A stretch of 64,000 nt of DNA from Pseudomonadota bacterium (GTDB taxonomy: Bacteria; Pseudomonadota; Gammaproteobacteria; Steroidobacterales; Woeseiaceae). The DNA lies in contig JBCDIL010000017.1 of assembly GCA_038749025.1 (NCBI GenBank), forward strand, positions 6,960 to 70,959, written 5' to 3'. Below, one piece after another: positions 48,817-60,641 of this stretch. Each line of letters opens with the position of its first letter. Within the stretch, counting starts at the first letter, position 1. The notes beneath the pieces were generated by a model, which was not told the origin of the DNA, did no database searches, and saw nothing but the letters and a program-made list of their open reading frames with translations. The position numbers and the translations under genes were made by a program.

Positions 48817-48846
48817 ATTGTTACCGCGTGCGGATGGTGCGGTCAA
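48817..48846 (-). promoter_or_regulatory. candidate sigma-70 promoter of the trp operon
   Basis: On the minus strand, TTGACC (48846-48841, overlapping the DUF885 stop codon), an 18-nt spacer, then AACAAT (48822-48817). The leader ATG lies 7 nt downstream and has no SD, which would mean a leaderless or near-leaderless transcript. Confidence 0.35.
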
Positions 48847-50675
48847 GACTCTTCGAGACCGAGTCGGCGCTGCTCTGCGGCGATAAAGCGACGAATCTCC
48901 TCATCGAGCACGGTCATTGGGATCGGCCCGTTGGCCAAAACCGCATCGTGGAATCGTCGCACATCAAACTGCTCCCCGAGCGCGCTTTGCGCTTCACGCC
49001 GCAGTTGCATAATGCGAATCATGCCAACCTTATAGGCCGTCGCCTGGCCGGGATAGACCAGGTAGCGTTCGATCGCGTTGACGACGTCGCCTTGCGGATT
49101 GGGCGTTGTCTCCAGCAAGTAGTCGATCGCCTGCTCACGACTCCAACGCTTCGCATGCAGCCCGGTATCAACGACCAACCGACAGGCGCGCCACAACTCC
49201 ATAGCGAGCCGACCAAAATCACTGTACGGGTCGGGGTAGGCATCAATCTCGGTAGGCAGCCACTCCGAATAAAGCCCCCAACCCTCCGAGAACGCTGTAA
49301 CGCGTCCGAATCGGCGAAACCGCGGTAACTCACCGAGCTCTTGTTGAATCGCGATTTGCATATGATGGCCCGGAATACCCTCGTGGTAGGCGAGCGCGCG
49401 CATCTGGTAGGTCGGCATGCGCTCCATGCGGTAAAGGTTCGCGTAGTAGACGCCAGGACGGCTGCCGTCCGCGGATGGTCGGCTATAAAACGCTTTGCCT
49501 GCTGATTTTTCGCGGAACGGCTCGACCCGACGGACAACCATATTGGCGGCCGGTTTGCGGGTGAATAACTCGTCGAGTCGCAAGCGCATCGCGTCGATAA
49601 TCGCCGTCGCCTCTTCCAAGTAACGTTGTCGGCCCGCGTCGGTATTCGGGTAGTAGAACTGCGCATCCGTGCGCGTGAATTCGAAAAACTCCGGCAGCGT
49701 ACCGTCAAAATTGACGGCGACCATGATCGCGCGCATCTCAGTATGGATCCGTGCAACCTCGTCGAGACCGATCTGGTGCAGCTCGTCAGCCGTCAGCGTG
49801 GTCGTCGTGTAGCGGCGCAGCATCGCCGCGTAGTACGCATCACCATCGGGCAAGGCCCAGACGCCGTTGTTGCCAACGGCTAATCGTTGGTTGGCACGGA
49901 GCGCCTCGACCAAGCGGCCGTAAGCTGGGCCGACGACATCGACGAGCGCAGCATCAGCGGCGGCCAGCAGTCGATTCGCATCGTCGCGGTCAAGGTTCAG
50001 GGCCGCTACCTTGGCCCGAAAATCAGCACGCAGGGTTGAGTCGTTTCCGGAATCATCGAACGGCGTACCGCGAGTCACATTGCCCGCCGCTTCTAGCGCC
50101 TGCGGAAACACCAAGGCCGGTGCGACGATCCCTTTAGCGGCGGAGCGCTCAAGCTGCGCGATAACCTCATCGAACAGCGGACCAACACCACGCAATCGGG
50201 CGATATAGGTCTCGGCATCGACCGGCGTTCGAACGCTATGGTTATTGATCAAGAAAGCCGGTACGTAGGTGTGAATTCCTGAGCGATGGTCGATGGGATA
50301 GTCGTGATCGCGCCAACGATACTCGGCGACTCGCTCCCGCAAATCGCGCTTTAGCAGACGCAGACTTAGTTCGTCCTGCCCACTAAACACCCGCTCATCG
50401 AATCGTATCGCGGCAGCGGCGAGATCGTTCTTGGTAATTTCGTGGGACTCAGCGGCAGACTCGACGCTGCGATCGCGCCACTCGGCGTCGCGGGTTCGCT
50501 CCCCAACGCGAGTTAGCTGCTCTGGGTTGCGGGCAAGCCGGGCCGCAAACACGGCTTCGAAAAACGTATTCAGCTCGGCGCTTGCCGTTGTGCCGCTGGT
50601 CGCCAAATCGCTGTTGGTCACCGTTTGGCAAGCGGCCAATGCGACGAGCGCGACAGTGGGTAACACCCATCGCAT
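48843..50675 (-). CDS. DUF885 family secreted protein (metallopeptidase-like)
   Basis: Signal peptide with lipobox-like LAAC. HEGIPGHHMQ block typical of DUF885. Confidence 0.8.
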   Translation of the reverse strand: MRWVLPTVALVALAACQTVTNSDLATSGTTASAELNTFFEAVFAARLARNPEQLTRVGERTRDAEWRDRSVESAAESHEITKNDLAAAAIRFDERVFSGQDELSLRLLKRDLRERVAEYRWRDHDYPIDHRSGIHTYVPAFLINNHSVRTPVDAETYIARLRGVGPLFDEVIAQLERSAAKGIVAPALVFPQALEAAGNVTRGTPFDDSGNDSTLRADFRAKVAALNLDRDDANRLLAAADAALVDVVGPAYGRLVEALRANQRLAVGNNGVWALPDGDAYYAAMLRRYTTTTLTADELHQIGLDEVARIHTEMRAIMVAVNFDGTLPEFFEFTRTDAQFYYPNTDAGRQRYLEEATAIIDAMRLRLDELFTRKPAANMVVRRVEPFREKSAGKAFYSRPSADGSRPGVYYANLYRMERMPTYQMRALAYHEGIPGHHMQIAIQQELGELPRFRRFGRVTAFSEGWGLYSEWLPTEIDAYPDPYSDFGRLAMELWRACRLVVDTGLHAKRWSREQAIDYLLETTPNPQGDVVNAIERYLVYPGQATAYKVGMIRIMQLRREAQSALGEQFDVRRFHDAVLANGPIPMTVLDEEIRRFIAAEQRRLGLEES

Positions 50676-50685
50676 CGCGATGTCC

Positions 50686-52551
50686 CTACAGACCGTAGAT
50701 GGCTGGCAAAACCAACGAAAACCCGAGCCACATAATGAGCGTTAGCGGTATACCAACACGCAAGAAATCGGAGAACTTGTAGCCGCCGGCACTGAAAATC
50801 AAGAGGTTGGTTTGATAGCCAATTGGCGTCGCATAACTCATGTTCGCACCGAACAAGACCGCCAGCACAAACGGTTCTGGGTCGGCGCCTAGTTGCGTCG
50901 CAATCGATATCGCGATCGGCGTGCCAATGACCGCAGCCGCGTTATTCGAGACGATGTTGGTGAGTATCGTCATGATCAACATGAAAGCGGCCAGAACGTA
51001 CGGTACTTCGAGCTCCGCGGTCAGCGCGACGAAGCGTTGCGCGATAAACTCGGCCATGCCGGTTTGCATCAAGGCAAAACCCAGCGCTAAGGAGGTAACA
51101 ACGATCATGATGATCGGGGCCGACAGCGCATCGGTGATGTCACGCCAACGCAGACAACCGGTCACCAGCATCAGACCCACGCCGGCAACGGCACCCGTCG
51201 AAATAGGGATGAGTCCGATCGCCGCAAAGCCGATCACCGCAGCCATGATCGCCAGCGCCCGATTGGCGCGATGGGTATGGGGTAAGTCGGTTGTACCGTC
51301 AAGCACCAACATTGTGCCGCTGGACTTTAAGCTCTCGATGGCGCCGCGTTTGCCTTGTACCAGCAAGACGTCACCGGCGCGCAGACGAACATTGCCAAGA
51401 TCGCTGGTGATCCGCGACGACGGCGTTCGGGCCCGATGAACGGCGAGTGGCAGCAATTTGGTGTTGGTTGAGAAATTGGTATCGGTCAGCGTTCGACGAT
51501 GCAGTGGCGAACCACGCGTTACAACGACTTCCGCCAACTGTTGACCCGGTGCGCTCAATGGCGTGTCGCTATCGTCATTCGGGGTAAACAGCTCCGCGCC
51601 GATCTCACGCTCGTAAGTCTTGAGATTGTCTGGCGTGTCTTTCACGTACAAGCGATCGCCCGCTTGCAAAACAACCGACGGTAGCTTCGCGAGAAACAGT
51701 GATTCGGTACGTTGAATACGATCGACGCGCATACGACCTTGCGTCTTCGCCAGTATCTCGGACAGCGTCTTGCCCGTCGCAAAGCCATCGTCGCGAATGG
51801 ACAGCTGCGCGCTGAATACACGAGGGGATGTGTCGTTTAACGGGGGTAAGCGTTGCGGCAGTAAACGTGGCGCGATCAGCCACAAGAACAAGATACCGAC
51901 ACCGCCGACGATTGCGACTGGCAGCGTGAAATCGAACATCGAGAATTGCGTCATGCCTTGCTCGCGGGCAAGACCAACCACCAATAGGTTTGTCGACGTA
52001 CCAATCGTCGTCGACATACCGCCGATGATCGTCGCAAGACCCATCGGCATGAGAACGCCTGACGGTGGTGTTTTGGTATCGAGCGACACAGCGACAAGAA
52101 TAGGCAGCAACAACACGACGATTGGCGTGTTATTCATGAACGCGCTTAACACCGCGCCGGCGATCAGCGTCGACAAAAACGCCAACACCGGCTTCACTCG
52201 CCACGCCCTCGCCACGAAACCCGCTAGCGGCTGCAACGCACCGGTCGCCTCCAGCCCGCGGCCAACGATCATCAGGGCACAAACAGCGACGAGCGCCTCG
52301 TTGCCGAACGCAACAAAGAAGTCGGCCGCGCCAATCTGCCCGTCCAGCCCGTCATACGGGAAAATCTCAAACAGCAGCAGCACGGTCACCAAGATCGCGA
52401 GCGCAGAGCTCTCCAGCGGAATGTGATCGCGTGTAAACAGGTACAACGCGAGCGCCGTCAGCAGCAGCACGACGATGCCGTGGATGTCAGGGGTGGCTTG
52501 CGGCACGCTTCTCTCGCAGTTGGCGCTGGCGTGTAACGGCCTCGCGGCCAT
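50686..52551 (-). CDS. SLC13/DASS-family permease with central TrkA-C domains
   Basis: Two TM bundles flank two RCK_C-like segments (..GKTLSEI..RVDRIQR.. and ..RRTLTD..LLPLAVHR..). Confidence 0.85.
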   Translation of the reverse strand: MAARPLHASANCERSVPQATPDIHGIVVLLLTALALYLFTRDHIPLESSALAILVTVLLLFEIFPYDGLDGQIGAADFFVAFGNEALVAVCALMIVGRGLEATGALQPLAGFVARAWRVKPVLAFLSTLIAGAVLSAFMNNTPIVVLLLPILVAVSLDTKTPPSGVLMPMGLATIIGGMSTTIGTSTNLLVVGLAREQGMTQFSMFDFTLPVAIVGGVGILFLWLIAPRLLPQRLPPLNDTSPRVFSAQLSIRDDGFATGKTLSEILAKTQGRMRVDRIQRTESLFLAKLPSVVLQAGDRLYVKDTPDNLKTYEREIGAELFTPNDDSDTPLSAPGQQLAEVVVTRGSPLHRRTLTDTNFSTNTKLLPLAVHRARTPSSRITSDLGNVRLRAGDVLLVQGKRGAIESLKSSGTMLVLDGTTDLPHTHRANRALAIMAAVIGFAAIGLIPISTGAVAGVGLMLVTGCLRWRDITDALSAPIIMIVVTSLALGFALMQTGMAEFIAQRFVALTAELEVPYVLAAFMLIMTILTNIVSNNAAAVIGTPIAISIATQLGADPEPFVLAVLFGANMSYATPIGYQTNLLIFSAGGYKFSDFLRVGIPLTLIMWLGFSLVLPAIYGL

Positions 52552-52610
52552 CGTTGCTGCGACGCAACACTCGCCGCAGCCATTATGCTAACGCAGGGCT
52601 GACCCGGGCG

Positions 52611-53975
52611 TCATGTACCGCTTGGGCGAGTCAGGGTGGCAGCGAGGTGACCAAACGCCGGTGTATCGCCCATTTTCGTGACGATCGCAGGCCAACGCTC
52701 GCCAAAACCAACACCATCGACGACGTTCAGGGCCTGACACCATGCGGCTGGACGCCGGTTAGACGATTGTCCGGCCCACAAGTCGGACAGGCAGGCCATC
52801 GTCAGATTACGGTGTCGATAAACATATCCGCGGGTGGCTATGCGCCAGCGCTCGCACCACACGTCGTAGTCCGCTCTCCCGATCAGGTGGCCGAGCGCTT
52901 GTTCTGGTGCTAGCGCGGCGTAGCCACCGTCACGGCGCGCCAACGCGGCCGAGTGGTCCTGTGCGGAATCGTTAAATTGACGCAACACGCGAGTCAGAAA
53001 CGCCACAGCGCGCTCGGTGTGGTTACCGAGACCGGCCAGCTGCACGAGCTCGCCTAGGTCGCGCGGCAACAAGGCCAGCCGTCGGTGCCGATAGGTGTCC
53101 CAAACATCGGCCGCGAGCGGCCACCGCACTTCGTCGATCAAGGCATCCGCCGCATCGATGATCTGCGCTAGTGCGCTGCTCAGCTCATCGCCGGCGAGAC
53201 CGCGGCGCGACCAGTAAGGCAGCAACGAAACACTGACCGGTAATGTGACGGCATTCGACGGCAAGCAAAGCCGCAACGTTGGCGACACGGTAGCGAACGG
53301 CTCATCGCCGAGCACCGGCGTCGTCGATCGAAGCCACCGCGGGAACACAGGTATCCAACGCGTTGGCCAGCGCCGTCTTTCACGCGGTAGCTGCGGCAAC
53401 TCGGCGCGCTGCACAATGACATGACAAGGCCACGCGCTAATGCTGCGCTCCTCGCAAAGCGCCGCCGCCTGCTCGAAGGTCACCTGCAATACGACCCGTT
53501 CGCGAGACGTCACGCGTGCGCAACCCAGACCGAGAAAGCGATCGATATCGTCGCAACTGGCCAGCGACAGGTCGACGCTATAAGCGCCGCGCTCAGCGGC
53601 CAATATGCTCGCGATTGCCGTACCGCCAGATAGCCAATCGCGGGCGGCATGTCCGGATATCGATCGTTCGGCAACGATCCACTGGCCGCTGTCCTCGACA
53701 ATGTGTGCGACCGCACGACAACGGCGCAATGCCATTAGGCGGCGCTGGACACGGGTTGTCGCCGCGAAGGAGTCAACCTCAGAAACAGACCGGACAAGCA
53801 TGCGCGTAAGCCTGACCGAGGTACGCGAATAGAGTTGCCCACATAAATCGTCCAATCGAGTGGTTTGGGCGGTGGCGGCCAATCTGCTATCGTCGCGCGC
53901 GTCAACTGATCGGAGCCAATCGTTGAGTTTTCGCGATCTAATAAGCACTTGGGAATCGACTCCCGAGGTACGCAA
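52611..53975 (-). CDS. degenerate ribonucleotide-reductase alpha-barrel-like protein (orphan; possibly a pseudoenzyme or decaying relic)
   Basis: This is the only long ORF in the interval, and third-codon positions are G+C-rich in this frame. Ordered matches to RNR large-subunit C-terminal blocks are listed in the findings. The track start 53975 is TTG without SD and overlaps the divergent small ORF; the first ATG is 53801. Confidence 0.4.
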   Translation of the reverse strand: MRTSGVDSQVLIRSRKLNDWLRSVDARDDSRLAATAQTTRLDDLCGQLYSRTSVRLTRMLVRSVSEVDSFAATTRVQRRLMALRRCRAVAHIVEDSGQWIVAERSISGHAARDWLSGGTAIASILAAERGAYSVDLSLASCDDIDRFLGLGCARVTSRERVVLQVTFEQAAALCEERSISAWPCHVIVQRAELPQLPRERRRWPTRWIPVFPRWLRSTTPVLGDEPFATVSPTLRLCLPSNAVTLPVSVSLLPYWSRRGLAGDELSSALAQIIDAADALIDEVRWPLAADVWDTYRHRRLALLPRDLGELVQLAGLGNHTERAVAFLTRVLRQFNDSAQDHSAALARRDGGYAALAPEQALGHLIGRADYDVWCERWRIATRGYVYRHRNLTMACLSDLWAGQSSNRRPAAWCQALNVVDGVGFGERWPAIVTKMGDTPAFGHLAATLTRPSGT

Positions 53976-54258
53976 GACCGATACCGATTACGCCGTTCGT
54001 TTACCGATCGGTGCTGCCGCCAAACTGCATGCGTTGGCCGATTTATACCCGGGCGCCGGCGTCGAGCAAATAATCACCGACCTGATGGAAATGGCGCTCA
54101 ATGAGGTAGCGACGGCACTGCCGTACGTCCCGGGTGAGCGCGTGATCAGCGAAGATGACTTCGGCGATCCCGTTTACGAAGACGCCGGTCCAACGCCGCA
54201 GTTTGAGCAACTGCGCCGCCAACACGAACAGCGTTTGAGTGAATCGGCAAGCGACTGA
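53923..54258 (+). CDS. small hypothetical protein translationally coupled to the ABC exporter
   Basis: TTG 53923 has GGAG 7 nt upstream. The 111-aa product is acidic at its C-terminus. Its stop lies 20 nt inside the downstream ABC gene. Confidence 0.4.
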   Translation: MSFRDLISTWESTPEVRKTDTDYAVRLPIGAAAKLHALADLYPGAGVEQIITDLMEMALNEVATALPYVPGERVISEDDFGDPVYEDAGPTPQFEQLRRQHEQRLSESASD

Positions 54259-56044
54259 CCCAGCTGGCTTAGGGGTTTTACGCTACACGCGCCGGGCTAT
54301 TGAGCTCGTTTGGCAAACCAGCAAACCGCTAACGATAACGCTCGCTGCGCTCACCATCATGGCTGGCCTCGCGCCGGCCGGGATCGCCTGGGTCGGTAAA
54401 CTGATCGTCGACGCCGTGGTCGCAGCGGCCTCCTCCACTGGCAGCGCGCGCGATGCGCTCGTCTACGTCGCGGTAGAAGGCGTGCTGGTAACGCTGCTCG
54501 CCGGGGCGCAACGCGGCATCGCCATCTGCCAAGCGCTACTGCGCTCACTGCTAGCTAACCGTGTCAATGTGCTGATCCTTGAAAAGGCGTTAACGCTGTC
54601 ACTCACGCAATTCGAGGACTCGGAGTTTTACGACAAACTAAACCGCGCGCGGCGCGATGCGTCATCGCGACCCCTTAGCCTAGTCAACCGCACCTTTGCA
54701 TTAGCGCAAAACGGTATTGCGCTGCTCGGTTTTGCCGGCTTGTTGCTGCAGTTCTCGCCGCTGGCCGTACTGATTCTGACAGCGGCAGGTATTCCGGCTT
54801 TTATCGCCGAAACCCGCTTTTCCGATCAGGCTTTTGCATTGAGTCGGCGTCGGTCGCCTGAGCTTCGCAAACAGTGGTACCTCGAAACGGTGCTGGCGCG
54901 CGAAGACCACGCCAAGGAGGTCAAACTGTTTCGCTTGGGCGAGAAGTTGCTGAGTCGCTACCAAACGATCTTTCAGCGCTTACACACCGATACCCGCGCG
55001 CTGACACTACGGCGTGAATTGTGGGGGCTGGTTCTCGGCATCCTAGGCACGATCGCGTTCTACGGCACCTATGCCTGGATAGCCATCGCGGCCGTCAGCG
55101 GGGCAATTACGCTCGGCGAGATGACGATGTACCTGCTGGTCTTTAAGCAAGGACAGTCTGCCGTTGGTTCTAACTTGTCCGCAATCAGCGGCATGTACGA
55201 GGACAATTTGTACCTGTCGAACCTGTACGAGTATTTGGAACAGCCGGCCGAACGCCATACCGGTAGCGCGACGGTTGGGCGAACTCCCGGCGATGGCGTG
55301 CGTTTCGCCAGCGTTAGCTTCACATACCCGGGAGCCGAGCGAGCCGCGCTGAACAACGTGACCTTGCACATCGCACCCGGCAAGAGCCTGGCGTTGGTCG
55401 GTGAAAACGGCGCCGGTAAAACGACGTTGATAAAACTAATGACCGGCTTGTACACACCGCAGCAAGGTGCGGTGCTACTCGACGGCACGCCGCTCAAAGA
55501 ATGGGATCGAGATGTTCTCGACCGCCGCTTCGGCGTGATTTTCCAAGATTTCGCCCGCTACCAGATGACCGTCGGCGAAAATGTTGGCGCGGGCGATGTC
55601 GACAATTTCGACGATACGGTACGCTGGCATGAAGCCGCAACGAGAGGGCTTGCCCACCCGTTTATTGAACAATTGCCCGATCAATACGCGACCCTGCTCG
55701 GCCGTTGGTTCGCCGGCGGTCAGGAGCTATCGAGCGGGCAATGGCAAAAAATTGCTTTGGCGCGGGCGTTTATGGATCGCTCGGCCGACATTTTGATTCT
55801 GGATGAACCGACCGCCGCCGTCGACGCAGCGGCCGAGGCAGCCATGTTTGAGCATTTCCATGAGATGAGCCGCGACAAGATCACGATCCTAATCTCGCAC
55901 CGATTTTCCACCGTCCGTCGTGCCGATCAGATTGTTGTTGTGGCCGATGGTCAGATCATCGAGCAAGGTGACCATGATGAACTCATGTCAGCCAACGGCC
56001 ACTACGCTACACTCTTCCGGCTACAGGCCGCAGGCTACCGCTGA
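54239..56044 (+). CDS. ABC exporter, fused permease/ATPase (MsbA-like type I exporter)
   Basis: A 6-TM domain followed by an NBD with Walker A GENGAGKTT, signature LSSGQWQ and Walker B ILILDEPT. Confidence 0.9.
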   Translation: MNRQATDPAGLGVLRYTRRAIELVWQTSKPLTITLAALTIMAGLAPAGIAWVGKLIVDAVVAAASSTGSARDALVYVAVEGVLVTLLAGAQRGIAICQALLRSLLANRVNVLILEKALTLSLTQFEDSEFYDKLNRARRDASSRPLSLVNRTFALAQNGIALLGFAGLLLQFSPLAVLILTAAGIPAFIAETRFSDQAFALSRRRSPELRKQWYLETVLAREDHAKEVKLFRLGEKLLSRYQTIFQRLHTDTRALTLRRELWGLVLGILGTIAFYGTYAWIAIAAVSGAITLGEMTMYLLVFKQGQSAVGSNLSAISGMYEDNLYLSNLYEYLEQPAERHTGSATVGRTPGDGVRFASVSFTYPGAERAALNNVTLHIAPGKSLALVGENGAGKTTLIKLMTGLYTPQQGAVLLDGTPLKEWDRDVLDRRFGVIFQDFARYQMTVGENVGAGDVDNFDDTVRWHEAATRGLAHPFIEQLPDQYATLLGRWFAGGQELSSGQWQKIALARAFMDRSADILILDEPTAAVDAAAEAAMFEHFHEMSRDKITILISHRFSTVRRADQIVVVADGQIIEQGDHDELMSANGHYATLFRLQAAGYR

Positions 56045-56073
56045 CGGCGGCTCGCAAACTGAAGGAGACAACG

Positions 56074-57399
56074 GTGCGCTTGAGGCACGGTATAACGGCA
56101 ATTTTCGTAGGCCTGGGGCTGATCGGTTGCGAACCGCCGGCGGACGAGCCGCCGCAACTGCCCATGGGTGTCTGGCAAGCCGCCCTGGAGCTGCCCGGCG
56201 GCAAGACGCCGTTCGGTTTAGAGTTCGGTCGGGAGGGCGACAGCGGCTATCGCGCGACCCTGCTCAATGGCCACGAACGCGTGACGGTCCCGAATGTCAC
56301 GTTCGATAGCGAAACGGGTGACCTGTCGTTGGTTTTCCCAGCGTTCGGCAATCGTATCGATGCCACCCTGCAAGACGGCGTGTTAGTCGGAAACTTGCGC
56401 AAACTGCAACGGACTGAGATTCAGGTTATTCCGTTCTCCGCCAAGCCAGGCACCGTAGCGGACGCCACCGCGCTATCGCAGGTTGACCTATCGGGGCGTT
56501 GGGAGGTCACGTTTACCGAAGACGATGGCAGTACCTATCCCGCCGTCGGTGAATTTGCGCAGCGCGGTGACCGGCTGTTCGGCACGTTTCTGACGACGAC
56601 AGCCGATTACCGCTACCTCGGTGGTCGCGTCGATGGCAACACAATGACGTTATCCACCTTCGATGGCGCACACGCCTTTCTGTTTCGTGGTGAGGTTCGC
56701 CCTAACGGTAATTTGACCGGTGAGTTTTGGTCTGGCCTCGCGTCATACGAAACCTTCGTCGCAATACGCAACAAAGACGCCCGGCTGCCAGACGCCAACC
56801 AGCTGACCTATTTGAACCCGGGTTACGAGCGTTTTGAATTCGAATTCGAAGACGTTAACGGCAATGTCGTGCGCTTCGATGACCCGCGTTTCGACGGCAA
56901 GGTGGTTATTGTGACCTTAGCCGGGAGCTGGTGCCCGAACTGTCATGATGAGGCAGCGTTTATGGCCCCACTGTATGACAAATACCGCGACCAGGGTCTC
57001 GAGATCGTCGCCTTGATGTTCGAACACGTGGGTTCGGATAAAGAGGCAGCCCGTCGTCAGGTCGGCGCGTTCCGCGACAAGTTCGCAATTAACTACGAAA
57101 CGCTGATCGCTGGAACATCAGACAAGGACCAAGCCAGTGAATTGCTGCCGTCATTGAACGCAGTAATGGCGTTTCCGACAACAGTATTCATCGATAGCAA
57201 CGGCGGCGTCCGGCGCATACATACCGGTTTCTCGGGCCCCGGCACCGGCGAACACTACACAGAACTCACGAGCGAATTTACGGCCTTTATCGAAACGCTG
57301 CTCGCCGAAGCTAATGCCACCGACGCAGCGGCCGAAGCAGTGGAAGAGGGTGCGGCGCCCGCTGACGAGGCTGTCGCAACGCCCGAGACAGAGGGTTAA
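56074..57399 (+). CDS. TlpA-like thioredoxin-fold lipoprotein with extended N-terminal domain
   Basis: GAAGGAG upstream of GTG 56074. Lipobox GLIGC. About 250-aa N-terminal region, then a redoxin domain with WCPNC. Confidence 0.8.
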   Translation: MRLRHGITAIFVGLGLIGCEPPADEPPQLPMGVWQAALELPGGKTPFGLEFGREGDSGYRATLLNGHERVTVPNVTFDSETGDLSLVFPAFGNRIDATLQDGVLVGNLRKLQRTEIQVIPFSAKPGTVADATALSQVDLSGRWEVTFTEDDGSTYPAVGEFAQRGDRLFGTFLTTTADYRYLGGRVDGNTMTLSTFDGAHAFLFRGEVRPNGNLTGEFWSGLASYETFVAIRNKDARLPDANQLTYLNPGYERFEFEFEDVNGNVVRFDDPRFDGKVVIVTLAGSWCPNCHDEAAFMAPLYDKYRDQGLEIVALMFEHVGSDKEAARRQVGAFRDKFAINYETLIAGTSDKDQASELLPSLNAVMAFPTTVFIDSNGGVRRIHTGFSGPGTGEHYTELTSEFTAFIETLLAEANATDAAAEAVEEGAAPADEAVATPETEG

Positions 57400-57401
57400 C
57401 G

Positions 57402-57884
57402 ATGCCATCGTTCGATATCGTGTCCGAGGTGGACATGCACGAAGCGCAAAATGCGGTTGACCAGGCCAACAAGGAAGTCAGCACGCGGTTCGACTTCAAA
57501 GGAACGAATTCGAGTTTTTCGCTGCAGGAGTCGGCGATTGAACTCGACGGCGAGGTATCGTTTCAACTGGACCAGATGCGCGGCATTCTGACCGAAAAAA
57601 TGTCACGCCGGGGCATCGATGTCGGCTGCCTCGATACCGGCACACCGATCACCAGCGGCCAACGCGCCAAGCAGACCATTACAATCCGGCAAGGCCTAGA
57701 CAGCGACTTTGCTAAACGCATCGTCAAAGATGTCAAAGCGTCGAAACTAAAAGTCCAATGCGCCATTCAAGGCGATAAGGTGCGAGTCACCGGCAAAAAG
57801 CGCGACGATCTACAGCAATGCATCGCCTTACTGCGAGACGCAGACCTCGGTCTGCCGCTGCAGTTTGAGAATTTCCGGGACTAA
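57402..57884 (+). CDS. yajQ: YajQ family nucleotide (cyclic-di-GMP) binding protein
   Basis: MPSFDIVSEVDMHE..NAVDQANKEVSTRFDFKG. Confidence 0.9.
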   Translation: MPSFDIVSEVDMHEAQNAVDQANKEVSTRFDFKGTNSSFSLQESAIELDGEVSFQLDQMRGILTEKMSRRGIDVGCLDTGTPITSGQRAKQTITIRQGLDSDFAKRIVKDVKASKLKVQCAIQGDKVRVTGKKRDDLQQCIALLRDADLGLPLQFENFRD

Positions 57885-57902
57885 ACGCCGACTCGGCAAC
57901 TC

Positions 57903-60641
57903 GTGGCTGCCTCCAAACAAAGCCTTCGCCAAGGCGATTTAGACTTTACCGAGCACACGCGTGCACTGCGTGCGGAGGTTCGGCGGCTCGGTGAAATGAC
58001 CGGCGAGCTGTTGCGCGAGCAAGGCGGTGAACATCTCTACGAGCTCGTCGAGACCGCGCGGCAACTAGCAATCCGCCGCCGCGAGGGCGATCTTAGCGTC
58101 GGCCGAGCACTGCACGAGCTGCTATCCGGCCTCAACGCCGCCACGGCAGACGATATAGCGCGGGCTTTTTCAACCTATTTCCATTTGGTGAATGCTGCCG
58201 AGAAAGTGCACCGAATTCGGCGGCGGCGCGAATACCTGACTGACGAGAGCCGACCGATGCCGCGGGGTCTCGATCGAACCTTCGTCTTGCTGCGTGAGCA
58301 AGGCTTCGGCATCGATGAGCTGCAGACCTTGCTCGATCAACTCGATATTGAACCGGTATTCACCGGGCAACCGACCGAGCCGACGCGGCGTACCATCCTG
58401 CGCAAAGAGCAGAACATCGTCCGCATGCTGGTCGCGATGCTCGATCCAACGTTGCCGCCACAAGAACGACGGGCTTACGAGGCCAAGATCCGCACCGAGG
58501 TCACAACGATCTGGCAAACGGACGAAAACCCCTCCGAAGCGATGACGGTGGCGGATGAATTGGAACATGTCCTGTTTTTTCTGACCGATGTTCTGTACCG
58601 GGTCGTACCACCGGTCTACGAGAATATGCGTGAAGCGCTGGTTCGCGCCTACGGCGACGAGGGTCGGGCGATCAGGCTACCGACACTGTTCCGGTTCGCT
58701 TCGTGGGTGGGCGCCGATCTTGATGGCAACCCCAACATTAACGCCAAGACAATTCGCAAAACGCTCACTCGGCAGCGCTCGTTAATCCTCAATCTGTATT
58801 TCGAGGAATGCGGCCGTCTTGCAACGCAGTTGAGTCAGACTCTCAGCCGGACCAGCGTCACCGAGGGAATATTGGAGCGAATCTCGGAATACCGTGAGCA
58901 TTTTCCCGATGCGATGCACGCCGTTCCGGCGCGCCATCGCGAGATGCCGTATCGGGTTTATCTGCGTTTGGTACAAGCCCGCATCAAATCGACGTTCGAC
59001 GACAGCGTGTTTCCCTATACGGACGCGGCCGAGTTCGAGGCGGACATTCGCCGACTGGAGGTCAGTCTCGCCGACAACCGCGGCCGTAACGCCGGCTACC
59101 ATCCGGTACGGCGTTTTCTGCGGCGCATCCAAACCTTCGGCTTTCACCTACTCAGTCTGGATATCCGCCAGAACGCAAAGATTCATCGCCAGGTCGTCGG
59201 CGCAGGTCTCGGCGATAGCGAGTGGCTGCAGCGCACACCGGATGAGCGGGTAGCCGCCATCTGTGCCGCGCTCGATTCACGGGAACCCCCCGATGAAGAA
59301 AGCGACACACTAACGCGCAAGACGCTCGCTGTCTTCCAAGCGATTGCTTATGCCCATCGACGCTACGGTGCCGGTGCAATAGGGCCGTTCATCATCAGTC
59401 AATGCGAAGGACCGGACGATGTCTTGGCGGTCTTGTTGCTGGCACAGTGGGGCGAGATGTCGAACCGGCGCGGTGAAGTGGCCCTCGATGTGGCGCCGAT
59501 GTTTGAGACCGATACCGACCTCATCGGCGGTAACGCGATGATCCATCGTCTCCTGGCAATCCCACAATACCGGCAACATCTTGAGCGCCGTAAGCATCGG
59601 CAAGTCGTCATGCTCGGCTACTCGCATTCCAACAAAGACGGTGGCATCGCATCATCTCGGTGGGCGCTCTATCAAGCGCAGCAAACCCTCGTCCATGATT
59701 TCGATGACACCGACATTGAAATTGTGTTGTTCCACGGGCGCGGCGGCAGCATAAGCCGTGGTGGCTCGAATACACGCAGTGCGGTTCGGAGCGCACCACC
59801 CGGCACGATCGGTGGCCACTTGCGCGTCACCGAACAAGGCGAAACGATTAACGAGAAGTACGGACTTCGCAATATCGCTTTGCGTAATCTTGAACAATCG
59901 ATCAGCTCGGTGGCGTGGGCCAGTAGGGAGCCGCTTCGCAACGTCGGGCTACGAAAAGACTGGGTCGATACGATGAACACCATCGCCACCGAGAGCCGGC
60001 GCGCTTACCGGGAGTTGGTCGTCGATACCCCTCGGTTCGTCGATTATTTTCGCGCAGCCACCCCGATCGATGTTATCGAGAGTATGCAAGTCGGCACGCG
60101 CCCGACCGACCAAGCAAACGGACGCGGTATCGACAACTTGCGCGCGATACCGTGGGTGTTCGCGTGGACGCAGAGTCGGCACATGTTGCCTGGGTGGTAT
60201 GGCGTCGGCACTGGTATCGGCAAAGCACTCGAACAATACGGCGAAGAACGCCTACTCGAGATGGCCCACGAATGGCCGTTTTTCGGCATCATGCTGCACG
60301 ACGTCGAGATCGTGATGGGCAAGACGGACTTGGCGACAGCCGTCGAATACTCACAGCTCGCCGAAGACCTGCACGAGCGGATCTTCCCGCGTATCGCGGC
60401 GGAATATGACAACACCCGGACACAACTGTTGGCGCTCACCGAACACGCTGTACTGCTCGAAGAAGATCGCGTGTTGCGCCGAGCGATCCGGCTTCGTAAT
60501 CCGTACCTGGATCCGATGAACGTTCTACAGATCGACTTGCTAAAGCGCTGGCGCGCCGGTGATCGCCAGGACGAGGGCATCAAGAACGCCTTGTTCGAAA
60601 CGGTAAACGGTATCGTGCAAGGCCTTCAAGCCACCGGCTAA
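57903..60641 (+). CDS. ppc: phosphoenolpyruvate carboxylase
   Basis: VFTGQPTE, FHGRGGSISRGG and the C-terminal NGIVQGLQATG blocks. Confidence 0.95.
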   Translation: MAASKQSLRQGDLDFTEHTRALRAEVRRLGEMTGELLREQGGEHLYELVETARQLAIRRREGDLSVGRALHELLSGLNAATADDIARAFSTYFHLVNAAEKVHRIRRRREYLTDESRPMPRGLDRTFVLLREQGFGIDELQTLLDQLDIEPVFTGQPTEPTRRTILRKEQNIVRMLVAMLDPTLPPQERRAYEAKIRTEVTTIWQTDENPSEAMTVADELEHVLFFLTDVLYRVVPPVYENMREALVRAYGDEGRAIRLPTLFRFASWVGADLDGNPNINAKTIRKTLTRQRSLILNLYFEECGRLATQLSQTLSRTSVTEGILERISEYREHFPDAMHAVPARHREMPYRVYLRLVQARIKSTFDDSVFPYTDAAEFEADIRRLEVSLADNRGRNAGYHPVRRFLRRIQTFGFHLLSLDIRQNAKIHRQVVGAGLGDSEWLQRTPDERVAAICAALDSREPPDEESDTLTRKTLAVFQAIAYAHRRYGAGAIGPFIISQCEGPDDVLAVLLLAQWGEMSNRRGEVALDVAPMFETDTDLIGGNAMIHRLLAIPQYRQHLERRKHRQVVMLGYSHSNKDGGIASSRWALYQAQQTLVHDFDDTDIEIVLFHGRGGSISRGGSNTRSAVRSAPPGTIGGHLRVTEQGETINEKYGLRNIALRNLEQSISSVAWASREPLRNVGLRKDWVDTMNTIATESRRAYRELVVDTPRFVDYFRAATPIDVIESMQVGTRPTDQANGRGIDNLRAIPWVFAWTQSRHMLPGWYGVGTGIGKALEQYGEERLLEMAHEWPFFGIMLHDVEIVMGKTDLATAVEYSQLAEDLHERIFPRIAAEYDNTRTQLLALTEHAVLLEEDRVLRRAIRLRNPYLDPMNVLQIDLLKRWRAGDRQDEGIKNALFETVNGIVQGLQATG

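Follow-up and report, generated by a model that had tools for sequence, protein, structure and literature searches.

The window analyzed here, a 64,000-nucleotide stretch of DNA from a Woeseiaceae contig, carries on its minus strand, between the genes for a permease and an ABC exporter, an open reading frame (ORF) with a ribonucleotide reductase (RNR)-like product. The features of this locus are as follows:

52611-53975, minus strand: the complete ORF, 454 codons from a TTG start.
52611-53801, minus strand: region coding for the RNR-like pseudoenzyme (396 aa and a stop codon), likeliest start ATG at 53801; orthologs of 397-406 aa align from that Met; AlphaFold2 (AF2) pLDDT 93.2, with a confident helix from residue 8; dN/dS 0.14-0.31 against orthologs.
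53802-53975, minus strand: open 5' extension to the TTG, 58 codons, probably untranslated; it has no counterpart in the orthologs, overlaps a small divergent ORF of the plus strand in its conserved N-terminus and shows no Shine-Dalgarno-like sequence before the TTG.
52507-52610, minus strand: spacer of 104 nt between the RNR-like gene and the permease gene, containing blocks that a DNA alignment shows to be conserved in L001 and L003, the two closest relatives.
50686-52506, minus strand: downstream partner, a permease of the DASS/CitMHS type that carries a TrkA_C domain; counted from the start it has in common with its orthologs, it is 606 aa long, and the frame is open back to 52551 (Pfam CitMHS 1e-70, TrkA_C 1e-16; NCBIfam DASS 3e-25).

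In line with the composition given in an earlier note on this DNA, the 454-codon ORF encodes two Lys (positions 16 and 434) and is rich in Arg (56), Trp (15), Ala (57) and Leu (54). Open stretches of this kind are rarely expected by chance, with approximately 0.002 of 454 codons and 0.01 of 396 codons predicted for the window; in 100 shuffles, the longest open stretch reached 443 codons at most, the median being 269. The note had also proposed a TTG start lacking a Shine-Dalgarno sequence. Whereas none was indeed found upstream of the TTG, the true start is, judging from the orthologs, most likely the ATG at 53801, which would give a protein of 396 aa. A divergent 132-aa ORF at 53860-54258 on the plus strand, whose N-terminus lies opposite the first 58 codons of the TTG frame, is conserved as well, and the RNR-like ORF is therefore not the sole conserved ORF between the permease and the ABC exporter, where it had been described as the only long one.

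The relationship to RNR was exposed only by family profiles and by NCBIfam. The window protein alone had no match in Pfam, even at E <= 10, and retrieved nothing from the PDB as a single-sequence query. At the family level, however, the NCBIfam 'RNR-like' model was matched by all five close homologs and by 94 of 111 family members, the NrdJ model by 65 and the Pfam RNR barrel by 34 of these 111. A family profile searched against the PDB recovered Thermotoga maritima NrdJ at 2e-5, and at 2e-11 once bridge sequences were added, along with matches to Pseudomonas aeruginosa NrdA and Escherichia coli R1. Profile-profile comparison with genuine NrdJ by hhalign gave a probability of 96% (E = 1e-9), and a tblastn search with the bridge protein P0121 reached the window ORF at E = 1e-8; a graded series of such bridge proteins connects the short family with RNRs. 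The scores of the window protein itself fell below threshold, with 19 bits for TIGR02504 (NrdJ_Z; cutoff 400) and 22 bits for NF005401 (cutoff 906). The latter match covers model positions 342-429 only of 604 and is thus not full-length; the best family member matched this model with E = 4e-11.

Predicted structures pointed in the same direction. The AF2 model built from an alignment of 111 sequences (pLDDT 93.2, pTM 0.92) was used in place of an earlier, poor one from four sequences (pLDDT 55), for which the Foldseek matches had already all been RNRs (TM 0.25-0.30). With the 111-sequence model, the best 50 Foldseek matches in the PDB were all RNR alpha subunits (E ~1e-9, probability 1.0, TM by query length 0.47-0.57). 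This model shows that the alpha/beta-barrel of RNR is, as predicted, retained together with a central hairpin at residues 171-180, the equivalent of the finger loop. Since only eight clear barrel strands, against ten in the RNR barrel, plus an N-terminal beta-meander were predicted, strand beta-A is apparently missing or replaced. Hence, the description of the ORF as a truncated, catalytically degenerate RNR large-subunit barrel nearest to NrdJ was backed independently by sequence profiles, hhalign and the structure model; this interpretation is supported, while the observations on which it had been built were confirmed in part.

The following segments of the protein were compared with RNR:

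53301-53327, minus strand: family motif S-x-C-P-L-L-x-x-E, here S-T-T-P-V-L-G-D-E; the family Cys (93/111) is Thr here, and the Glu (108/111), also present in genuine NrdJ, is kept.
53259-53291, minus strand: finger-loop equivalent, residues 171-181, TVSPTLRLCLP, the tip S173-P174-T175-L176-R177 corresponding to N-P-C-G-E of NrdJ (MAFFT via bridge sequences; AF2 strands 171-172 and 178-180).
53229-53246, minus strand: strand beta-F equivalent, TLPVSV, with T186 at the bottom-face redox Cys of RNR (T. maritima C333, E. coli C462); in the HMMER alignment to 1xje, S337 falls on window S190 (AF2 strand 187-192).
52887-53189, minus strand: best-conserved core, residues 205-305, comprising helix alpha-F, W-P, the invariant D235, H-R-R-L-A-L (K-R-R-I-G-L-G of RNR, strand beta-G) and a long helix ending in the RNR 'ELA..G.(F/Y)P' block; direct sequence match to RNR (NF005401, TIGR02504, PDB 5im3, 1xje, E. 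coli R1).
52806-52817, minus strand: R-H-R-N motif, residues 329-332, aligned with 'I-R-N-S' of RNR before strand beta-H; R331 is invariant in the family.

Based on alignment and predicted secondary structure, the thiyl Cys of RNR corresponds to T175 in the window protein, the neighboring catalytic Asn to S173 and the Glu to R177. Across the 111 family members, the thiyl position is occupied by G, V, A, E, P or T, and never by Cys; Leu predominates at the Asn position and Gly at the Glu position. The nearby C179, four residues from T175, is Cys in only 7 of 111 members. The redox-active Cys pair of RNR, C225/C462 in E. coli and C134/C333 in T. maritima, is not preserved either: the bottom-face position is T186 here and Trp in 99 of the 111, and the strand bearing the top-face Cys (N-C-F-V in NrdJ) has no counterpart. 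The phosphate loop A-P-T-G that follows R-H-R-N is altered to S-P-(Y/W)-S in the family and to C-L-S-D in the window protein. All residues needed for nucleotide reduction have been replaced (thiyl Cys by Thr, Asn by Ser, Glu by Arg and bottom-face Cys by Thr), and the protein therefore cannot be a reductase. As to a radical source, the window contains no nrdB-like gene, Rfam gave no cobalamin riboswitch in the vicinity, and the C-terminal part of NrdJ is missing. We consider it highly probable that the ORF is a real protein-coding gene, that it encodes an RNR-barrel homolog and that this homolog is dead as an RNR.

The finger-loop register was set by sequence alignment and predicted secondary structure. 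It derives from a nearly gap-free MAFFT alignment via bridge sequences, with which both the HMMER register on 1xje and the predicted hairpin are in accord. We rejected the register of a global hhalign alignment, in which the Cys161 motif of the family would come to lie no more than two residues from the thiyl Cys of NrdJ; it contains three gaps and a low-confidence N-terminal half. We also dismissed a reading of the C-terminal '...IAAGV' tail as a glycyl-radical motif, because its Gly is not conserved and there is no activase gene nearby. Of the eight motif blocks that the earlier note had matched to RNR by eye, blocks 4-8 (VSVSLLPYW; IIDAADALIDEVRWPLAADV; RHRRLALLPRDLG...; HSAALARRDGGYAAL; YRHRNLTMACLSD) stood in the same register in our HMMER and MAFFT alignments with genuine RNRs, and the loss of APTG held as well. 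Blocks 1-2 were off by one beta-alpha unit, AERGAYSVDLS aligning with the GGGxGxxFS strand of NrdJ and ERVVLQVTFEQAAAL with RRGA...HPDI. Block 3 had set the thiyl Cys at C179 instead of the aligned T175, so that the supposed retention of the central radical Cys was not borne out. The flanking Asn and Glu are lost as described there, but the residues replacing them are S173 and R177, not R and P.

Far from being an orphan, as it had been labeled, the window protein belongs to a family that, clustered at 50%, numbers 188 representatives or more. It matches the family profile over most of its length, lies in the ~380-450-aa size range and carries the invariant D235, R241 and R331; a profile of the window subfamily retrieved the family with 84 matches at or below 1e-10. 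Four homologs at 48-100% identity were identified, with synteny conserved in two MAG genomes, and the orthologs at the same locus, 48-62% identical, are intact; N-x-C-x-E is kept in none of the 111 family members. The family was found mainly in Woeseiaceae, a dominant group in marine sediments, and in allied Gammaproteobacteria. Its taxonomic range (almost entirely Woeseiaceae) was taken from a genome scan with a 13-sequence subset and is a lower bound, since only one peptide pattern was used in the scan. 'Hypothetical' is the annotation given to the window protein and to its named relatives, and literature searches found no description of the short RNR-like family.

Regarding selection, four lineages keep the reading frame, the length and 107 invariant residues even though dS exceeds 1 between orthologs. 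On unsaturated Woeseiaceae pairs, dN/dS was 0.07-0.26 for the RNR-like gene compared to 0.03-0.06 for the permease, and the former evolves 3-5 times faster than its neighbors. The window clade showed the highest values in the family (0.14-0.31). An overall range of 0.07-0.31 indicates selective constraint and shows that the family is under purifying selection. This, together with the intact syntenic orthologs, contradicts one of the two options entertained at the outset, a neutrally drifting relic, and favors the other, a repurposed RNR-fold pseudoenzyme. Lys depletion, for which the note had offered neutral drift as an explanation, does not signal decay; it is a trait of the whole family and goes with a high G+C content at second codon positions (0.54 vs. 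0.45-0.47 in neighboring genes). The RNR-like gene is nevertheless dispensable, because it is missing from some relatives; in one genome (L045), it is split into two ORFs. Within the family, the window subfamily forms a divergent branch, in which ~40 otherwise conserved positions have changed, among them C161T, W186T, N239H and S337C/P338L. Given these departures and its dN/dS, the highest observed, it may have shifted or partly lost its function.

In nearly all cases, the RNR-like gene lies immediately upstream of the permease gene. An RNR-like gene followed by the permease gene on the same strand was observed in 35 of 38 Woeseiaceae species genomes, and the same holds for members whose identity to the window protein is only ~25%. 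The pair is also kept in all six bridge-group loci, where the flanks are different (GST and ubiB, with no ppc or trp genes) and where, in one case, the stop and start codons of the two genes overlap by 4 bp. Among metagenome loci with a permease at least 60% identical, 39 of 49 carried the RNR-like gene 25-125 nt upstream. However, the permease occurs without it in 10 of these 49 close loci and in 13 of 14 more distant ones, the slot being cleanly empty, and three Woeseiaceae genomes have the RNR-like gene without the permease; thus, the pairing is not obligate either way. Co-transcription of the pair is not assured, because in some lineages a promoter-like element lies between the genes. In the window, the 104-nt spacer yielded neither a significant predicted fold (z = -1.5) nor a consensus promoter or terminator above chance, and no Rfam family matched within 50000-58000. 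The RNR-like gene never stood beside nrd genes in the ~130 loci examined.

Taken together, the best overall explanation, which we consider probable, is that the product is a real cytoplasmic protein of ~396 aa that descends, in shortened form, from a class II-like (NrdJ-like) RNR catalytic barrel and most likely works without catalysis. That it serves as an accessory of the adjacent permease, the likeliest role, is proposed tentatively. The preserved barrel would then act as a binding or regulatory module for the DASS/CitMHS-TrkA_C permease without performing catalysis, for example by sensing a cytoplasmic anionic ligand or through contact with the cytoplasmic TrkA_C domain of the permease. 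In its most specific form, where a radical-enzyme barrel stripped of its chemistry was co-opted by a DASS/CitMHS-TrkA_C anion transporter as a dedicated accessory subunit in the cytoplasm, acting as sensor or gate, the proposal is more doubtful.

A neofunctionalized enzyme, with the barrel re-tooled for a non-radical reaction, possibly on the anion of the permease, was considered unlikely. Such an enzyme would be built around new conserved polar residues of the family, C161, E167, D235, N239, R240/R241, R329-H330-R331-N332 and D362. Strongly conserved polar, Cys and His positions other than those of RNR catalysis are numerous in the wider family, more so than a pure scaffold usually needs; moreover, the gene is under purifying selection, and the neighboring transporter could deliver or clear a substrate. 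Nonetheless, the window subfamily is conserved despite C161T, N239H and S337C/P338L (in the former phosphate loop), a metabolic enzyme would not usually evolve so fast or be lost repeatedly, and Pfam and NCBIfam recognize no cofactor-binding motif. We attach a small probability to the idea that the protein regulates the host's own RNR, or serves as its decoy, by forming hetero-oligomers. This would follow a general pattern among pseudoenzymes (PMC5106787, PMC10211241), and the best-conserved part is the barrel core, including the helices that line RNR subunit interfaces, but the N-terminal helical region, which in RNRs forms the dimer and specificity site, is either absent or replaced, and the neighbor is consistently the permease and not an nrd gene, none being present in the window.

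For the family as a whole, decay is refuted, and an nrdJ-derived pseudogene kept open only by the rarity of stop codons in G+C-rich DNA is very improbable at this locus too. Its rate of evolution relative to the neighbors, the high second-position G+C with abundant Arg, Ala and Trp, as mutation bias would give, and the absent or split copies in relatives are what such a relic would show. These features have to be set against the frame, length and invariant residues maintained in four lineages at dS > 1, an omega of 0.07-0.26 on unsaturated pairs, covariation among 111 sequences strong enough for a pLDDT 93 model, and a chance expectation of 0.01 or less for an ORF of this length. Least credible of all is a minimal RNR that is still active, like the class O alpha subunits of ~430-470 aa, and in which the radical Cys would have moved to C179 or to the family C161. 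Active alpha subunits of similar length do exist (PMC9531940), and a Cys is found near the finger loop, C179 in the window protein and C161 in most of the family. Each of the two is, however, absent from large parts of the family, and the hairpin tip lacks Cys in 111 of 111 members. Besides, Asn, Glu and both redox Cys are absent, A-P-T-G is altered, the curated RNR models score far below their cutoffs (19-22 bits vs. 400-906) and nothing nearby encodes a radical-generating partner.

Few enzyme families have been studied as much as RNR, whose known non-catalytic derivatives come mainly from herpesviruses. A sizeable bacterial family of catalytically dead RNR barrels, abundant in Woeseiaceae and overlooked by routine annotation, provides a natural series in which the reduction of an enzyme fold to a scaffold can be studied, as well as a testable candidate for a new transporter accessory. 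It also carries a practical warning, as weak 'RNR-like' matches in Woeseiaceae genomes do not imply nucleotide reduction. If the accessory-subunit reading is true, the family would represent a class of transporter partner not known before and, among bacterial pseudoenzymes derived from RNR, the first to which a role can be assigned, and the series of ~600, 500, 440 and 396 aa would trace a step-wise reduction from enzyme to binding module.

Among known systems, the best sequence-profile matches were to class II adenosylcobalamin-dependent NrdJ (TIGR02504; T. maritima 1xje, 3o0m), which shares the alpha/beta-barrel with its finger-loop hairpin, the blocks W-P...D...(K/N)RR(I/L)(G/A)(L/I), the long helix ending ELA..G.(F/Y)P and RN before strand beta-H, and the 11 residues that separate the hairpin tip from strand beta-F. 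Apart from the exchanged thiyl Cys, Asn, Glu and redox Cys and the altered A-P-T-G, the window protein differs in being ~200-250 residues shorter, having lost the N-terminal ~110-130 residues (including strand beta-A and the top-face Cys) and the C-terminal ~100-150. The class O alpha subunit from the Synechococcus phage S-CBP4 (PDB 7urg) demonstrates that a barrel of ~430-470 aa folds and functions without long N- or C-terminal extensions (PMC9531940), but it keeps the catalytic cysteines and has a ferritin-like radical-generating subunit as partner, and the window protein has neither. The betaherpesvirus R1 homologs HCMV UL45, MCMV M45 and HHV-6B U28 are enzymatically inactive and kept for a non-catalytic role (PMC5469499, PMC11772975). 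In contrast to the short family, these are viral, full-length derivatives of class I R1 that act on host innate-immune signaling proteins; they have no transporter link and share descent with the short family only at the level of the RNR superfamily.

NF005401 (PRK06948), annotated as 'ribonucleotide reductase-like protein' and the best match of the window protein and of the 94 members mentioned above, appears to describe RNR-derived proteins of unknown function; unlike the short family, its members are ~600 aa long and cover the whole NrdJ barrel. The bridge group comprises proteins of 460-510 aa from gammaproteobacterial MAGs (P0121, P0143, P0145, P0030, P0093 and P0103) that likewise lack the catalytic residues and are encoded directly upstream of the orthologous CitMHS/TrkA_C permease. 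They match the window family at 1e-7 to 1e-30 and RNR models at 1e-18 to 1e-39, and most likely represent a longer, less eroded form of the same module. They differ in an N-terminus that is 60-110 residues longer and preserves a remnant of strand beta-A (A-D-x-F for N-C-F-V), in their flanking genes and in still being recognized by Pfam PF02867. Finally, P0136 is a full-length, NrdJ-like protein without the thiyl Cys, reading T-G-P-A-G-D for T-N-P-C-G-E of NrdJ; it has no adjacent permease and its gene resides in a mobile-element-like context with SSB, H-NS, DUF3150, VWA, MoxR-type AAA and Toprim genes.

The open reading frame (ORF) proposed in the earlier note is present at 52611-53975 on the minus strand (454 codons, TTG start), and its two Lys residues (positions 16 and 434) were confirmed exactly, alongside 56 Arg, 15 Trp, 57 Ala and 54 Leu. 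An open stretch of such length is beyond chance expectation: the number predicted for the window from base composition is approximately 0.002 at 454 codons and 0.01 at 396, and across 100 shuffles the longest open stretch reached 443 codons at most (median 269). As stated in that note, no Shine-Dalgarno-like sequence precedes the TTG. The TTG was not upheld as the start: the 58 codons between it and the ATG at 53801, where the orthologues begin, are probably untranslated, since no orthologue contains an equivalent, the 397-406-aa orthologues align from the Met at this ATG, and the segment overlaps, on the opposite strand, the conserved N-terminus of a divergent 132-aa ORF, for which protein-level conservation was observed in the closest relative. 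The features adopted here were as follows:

50686-52506, minus strand, DASS/CitMHS anion permease with a cytoplasmic TrkA_C domain
52507-52610, minus strand, 104-nt spacer
52611-53801, minus strand, RNR-like gene, 396 aa from ATG 53801
53860-54258, plus strand, 132-aa ORF, divergent from the RNR-like gene, its end overlapping the ABC exporter start (54239) by 20 nt

In the public annotation, an identical protein has 374 aa and starts at the second in-frame ATG (53735 vs. 53801, minus strand). This start is probably too far downstream, and the 396-aa gene was adopted because the shorter version would lose most of a helix at residues 8-27 that is predicted with pLDDT >90 and conserved in orthologues. 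Lys accounts for 0.3-0.5% of residues in all orthologues, compared to 1.2-2.7% in neighbouring proteins, and second-codon-position G+C is 0.54 in the RNR-like gene vs. 0.45-0.47 for its neighbours; the skewed composition is therefore a stable property of a protein under weak constraint, encoded in a genome rich in G+C. The 132-aa ORF, with an acidic C-terminal half, has conserved counterparts in both of the closest genomes (71-84% identity) and at several Woeseiaceae loci, and gave no match in Pfam or NCBIfam.

The proposed reading of the product as an RNR large-subunit barrel was borne out by profiles, by profile-profile alignment together with bridge proteins (longer RNR-like relatives of 460-510 aa), and by the AlphaFold structure model. 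A Pfam search with the window protein gave no match, and NCBIfam returned weak matches over residues 205-305 to NF005401 ('ribonucleotide reductase-like protein', 7e-5) and NrdJ (4e-4), both of which recur in every close homologue. Among 111 full-length members of the family of short RNR-like proteins, 94 matched NF005401 (best 4e-11), 65 the NrdJ model (best 1e-12) and 34 the Pfam RNR barrel PF02867 (best 7e-8). Against the PDB, the family profile detected T. maritima NrdJ (2e-5) and E. coli R1 (4e-4), all other entries scoring no better than 0.2; with the bridge sequences added, NrdJ reached 2e-11 and P. aeruginosa NrdA 3e-7. Alignment of the family by hhalign with P0152, a real NrdJ by 558 bits on TIGR02504, extended over ~350 columns (probability 96%, E = 1e-9). 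A graded series leads from real NrdJ through a 598-aa NrdJ-like protein and Pfam-recognised proteins of 460-510 aa to the 380-450-aa family, and the bridge protein P0121 matched the window ORF directly by tblastn (1e-8). A structure model built from four sequences was poor (pLDDT 55); nonetheless, its top 50 PDB matches were all RNRs. The model from 111 sequences reached a pLDDT of 93.2 and a pTM of 0.92, every one of its 50 best PDB matches was an RNR alpha subunit, from class I or class II (E ~1e-9, probability 1.00, TM up to 0.57 by query length), and 128 structure matches fell below 1e-3. The three lines are independent and agree that the window protein has an RNR-barrel fold.

The MAFFT alignment from real NrdJ via the bridge proteins to the family was almost gap-free through the barrel centre and gave the correspondences listed below.

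Elements of NrdJ and their counterparts in the window protein and the family (n = 111)
Finger loop N-P-C-G-E: window S173-P174-T175-L176-R177
Conserved Pro after the finger loop: window P181; family Pro 108/111
Bottom-face Cys of C-(N/D)-L-G-S: window T186; family Trp 99/111
Top-face-Cys strand (N-C-F-V): no counterpart in the window protein or family; A-D-x-F in bridge proteins
Phosphate loop A-P-T-G: window C-L-S-D; family S-P-(Y/W)-S

Across the family, the thiyl position is occupied by G, V, A, E, P or T and never by Cys, the finger-loop Asn position by Leu in 72/111 and the Glu position by Gly in 63/111. The finger-loop register is fixed, at the level of sequence alignment and predicted secondary structure, by two independent anchors. 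In both HMMER profile searches, T. maritima S337 aligned with window S190, which places C333 at residue 186, and the model predicts a hairpin (strands 171-172 and 178-180, tip at 175) whose tip lies 11 residues before 186, identical to the C322-C333 spacing of NrdJ. A global hhalign register, bringing family C161 (S-x-C-P-L-L-x-x-E) near the NrdJ thiyl Cys, was not adopted because it needs three gaps and contradicts both anchors. The catalytic degeneracy suspected previously therefore holds, with the finger-loop Asn, Cys and Glu and the bottom-face Cys replaced and the top-face-Cys strand without counterpart; as judged from the alignment and the predicted structure, no route to nucleotide reduction is left in the window protein. 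Concerning the eight motif blocks that had been matched to RNR, the register of blocks 4-8 was correct, and blocks 1 and 2 were displaced by one beta-alpha unit: AERGAYSVDLS aligns with the G-G-G-x-G-x-x-F-S strand of NrdJ, ERVVLQVTFEQAAAL with its R-R-G-A...H-P-D-I block and AWPCHVIVQRAEL with its N-x-S-V-x-V-x-D-x-F-M block. The supposedly retained central Cys, C179, lies four residues beyond the tip on the descending strand, and Cys occurs there in just 7/111 members.

Nor is the protein an orphan, as a protein search retrieved an identical protein and three diverged homologues (62, 50 and 48% identity), all annotated as hypothetical. The gene occupies the same locus position in two MAG genomes, with the ABC exporter and the small ORF, divergent, on one side and the CitMHS/TrkA_C permease, DUF885 and trpEGDC, on the same strand, on the other. 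Compared with orthologues, dN/dS was 0.14-0.31, vs. 0.02-0.14 for five flanking genes; in unsaturated species pairs (dS 0.23-0.50), omega was 0.07-0.26, compared to 0.03-0.06 for the permease. Purifying selection thus acts on the RNR-like gene, with a relaxation of some two- to five-fold. When 1.84 billion representatives were searched exhaustively by profile, 188 proteins passed E <= 1e-3 and 84 also passed E <= 1e-10; almost all have 380-450 aa, and all are Lys-poor and Arg- and Trp-rich. Species-representative genomes, scanned with a subset of the family alignment, gave 38 loci, every one belonging to Woeseiaceae or Woeseia or to a MAG labelled just Gammaproteobacteria or Proteobacteria, a range that may in truth be wider as the scan relied on a single peptide pattern. 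Sequence change in the family is very rapid: when the window is compared with a typical Woeseiaceae locus, identity is 68% for the permease, 66% for trpE and 56% for PEP carboxylase, vs. only 25%, across half its length, for the RNR-like protein.

The RNR-like gene, which is real and selected, consistently adjoins one anion permease. The order ppc(-), RNR-like gene(+), permease(+), trpE(+) was found in 35/38 Woeseiaceae genomes, sometimes with a redoxin gene and a small ORF between ppc and the RNR-like gene, and members ~25% identical to the window protein have the identical arrangement with a 19-20-nt gap to the permease. Bridge-protein genes lie elsewhere, with GST upstream and ubiB/ubiE downstream and without ppc or trp genes, a second subgroup having a different upstream gene again; each is followed on the same strand by an orthologous permease (57-62% identical to that of the window), in one case with a 4-bp stop/start overlap. 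The pair therefore outlasts the surrounding synteny, which is the strongest evidence of a functional link. It is breakable from either side, given that three of the 38 genomes (L026, L029 and L043) lack the permease and have trpE directly after the RNR-like gene. In metagenome loci with a permease at least 60% identical, the RNR-like gene lay 25-125 nt upstream in 39/49, compared to only 1/14 at 50-60% identity. Where it was missing, the slot was cleanly empty with no detectable remnant, the permease lying directly next to ppc-yajQ or ppc. This makes the RNR-like gene an accessory one that is present as a rule; certain lineages lost it, in repeated events, or never acquired it, and the permease can do without it. 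One Gammaproteobacteria MAG (L045, 5355-6753) has two overlapping ORFs (225 and 306 aa) in place of a single RNR-like gene, which reflects either a frameshifted pseudogene or a fault in the assembly.

The window spacer contains blocks conserved in the nearest relatives, namely CTGCGYTAGCATA and a short GTTGC...GCAAC hairpin, with no Rfam match, significant fold, or consensus promoter or terminator in the window spacer. Bridge-group spacers (L049 8471-8717, L050 3273-3543, L054 3009-3254) carry a TTGACATAAT box and a promoter-like TTGCGAT-N17-TATACG element between the genes, so that the bridge-group permease may have its own promoter.

Our tentative reading, favoured over its rivals, is that the window protein might work non-catalytically as a binding or regulatory module for the adjacent permease. 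It could sense a cytoplasmic anion or nucleotide for the permease or, alternatively, dock on its TrkA_C domain. A new enzyme using family-specific polar residues is unlikely, several of these having been lost in the window branch. Still less probable is a modulator of the cell's real RNR, as the dimer-forming N-terminal region is absent and the gene was never found near nrd genes. The neutral relic considered in the earlier note is contradicted by the selection tests and is very improbable: although dS exceeds 1, frame, length and 107 invariant residues have all been kept, over a distance at which neutral drift would have broken the frame many times. A cryptic minimal active RNR conflicts with the residue mapping and is scarcely credible.

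Positions conserved in the family (n = 111)
C161: 93/111
E167: 108/111, present in NrdJ too
W186: 99/111
W227: 104/111
D235, R241, R331: invariant
N239: 98/111
R240: 110/111
W315, W319: 106 and 102/111
R329, H330, N332: 101, 88 and 97/111
D362: 107/111

The window branch (the window protein and P0002-P0005) keeps the invariant residues and departs at ~40 other conserved positions, including C161T, W186T, N239H and S337C/P338L; it also lacks the C-terminal '...(F/L)(I/V)AAG(V/A)' tail of most Woeseiaceae members. It is a diverged side branch, whose function may have shifted or become partly relaxed. In family alignment A3, only the Ala of the tail, ...(S/T)(F/L)(I/V)A(A)G(V/A), is nearly invariant (93/111), and a glycyl-radical motif does not fit.

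By descent, class II RNR (NrdJ) and the uncharacterised NCBIfam 'RNR-like' group are closest to the window protein, which fails every defining catalytic feature and curated threshold of both and is therefore a homologue rather than a member. In kind, it most resembles the betaherpesvirus R1 homologues, which are no longer active and have acquired host-interaction roles (PMC5469499, PMC11772975). In class O minimal RNRs, a barrel of comparable size likewise stands alone but, unlike the window protein, is still catalytic (PMC9531940). Full-text searches brought up no account of any bacterial RNR barrel that is both short and catalytically dead, nor of a pairing of such a barrel with a transporter. 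RNR-derived pseudoenzymes are already known; new here are the reduced form of this RNR-fold pseudoenzyme and its genomic partnership. The fold assignment and the catalytic loss, both overlooked by routine annotation, are solid; the function is one we infer, the gene is dispensable and few lineages carry it.

A full-length 598-aa NrdJ-like protein, P0136 (L055 7001-8797), scores just under the NrdJ cutoff, has T-G-P-A-G-D in place of the radical loop T-N-P-C-G-E and apparently represents another, distinct type of dead RNR. Its context is mobile-element-like (SSB, H-NS, DUF3150, VWA/CobT_C, MoxR-type AAA, Toprim, UvrD helicase). Relative to most Woeseiaceae loci, additional inserted genes flank the module in the window lineage (48843-50675, minus strand; 54239-57399, plus strand): DUF885 separates the permease from trpE, and ppc is set apart from the RNR-like gene by the ABC exporter and a redoxin-domain protein, joined by yajQ in the two closest genomes.
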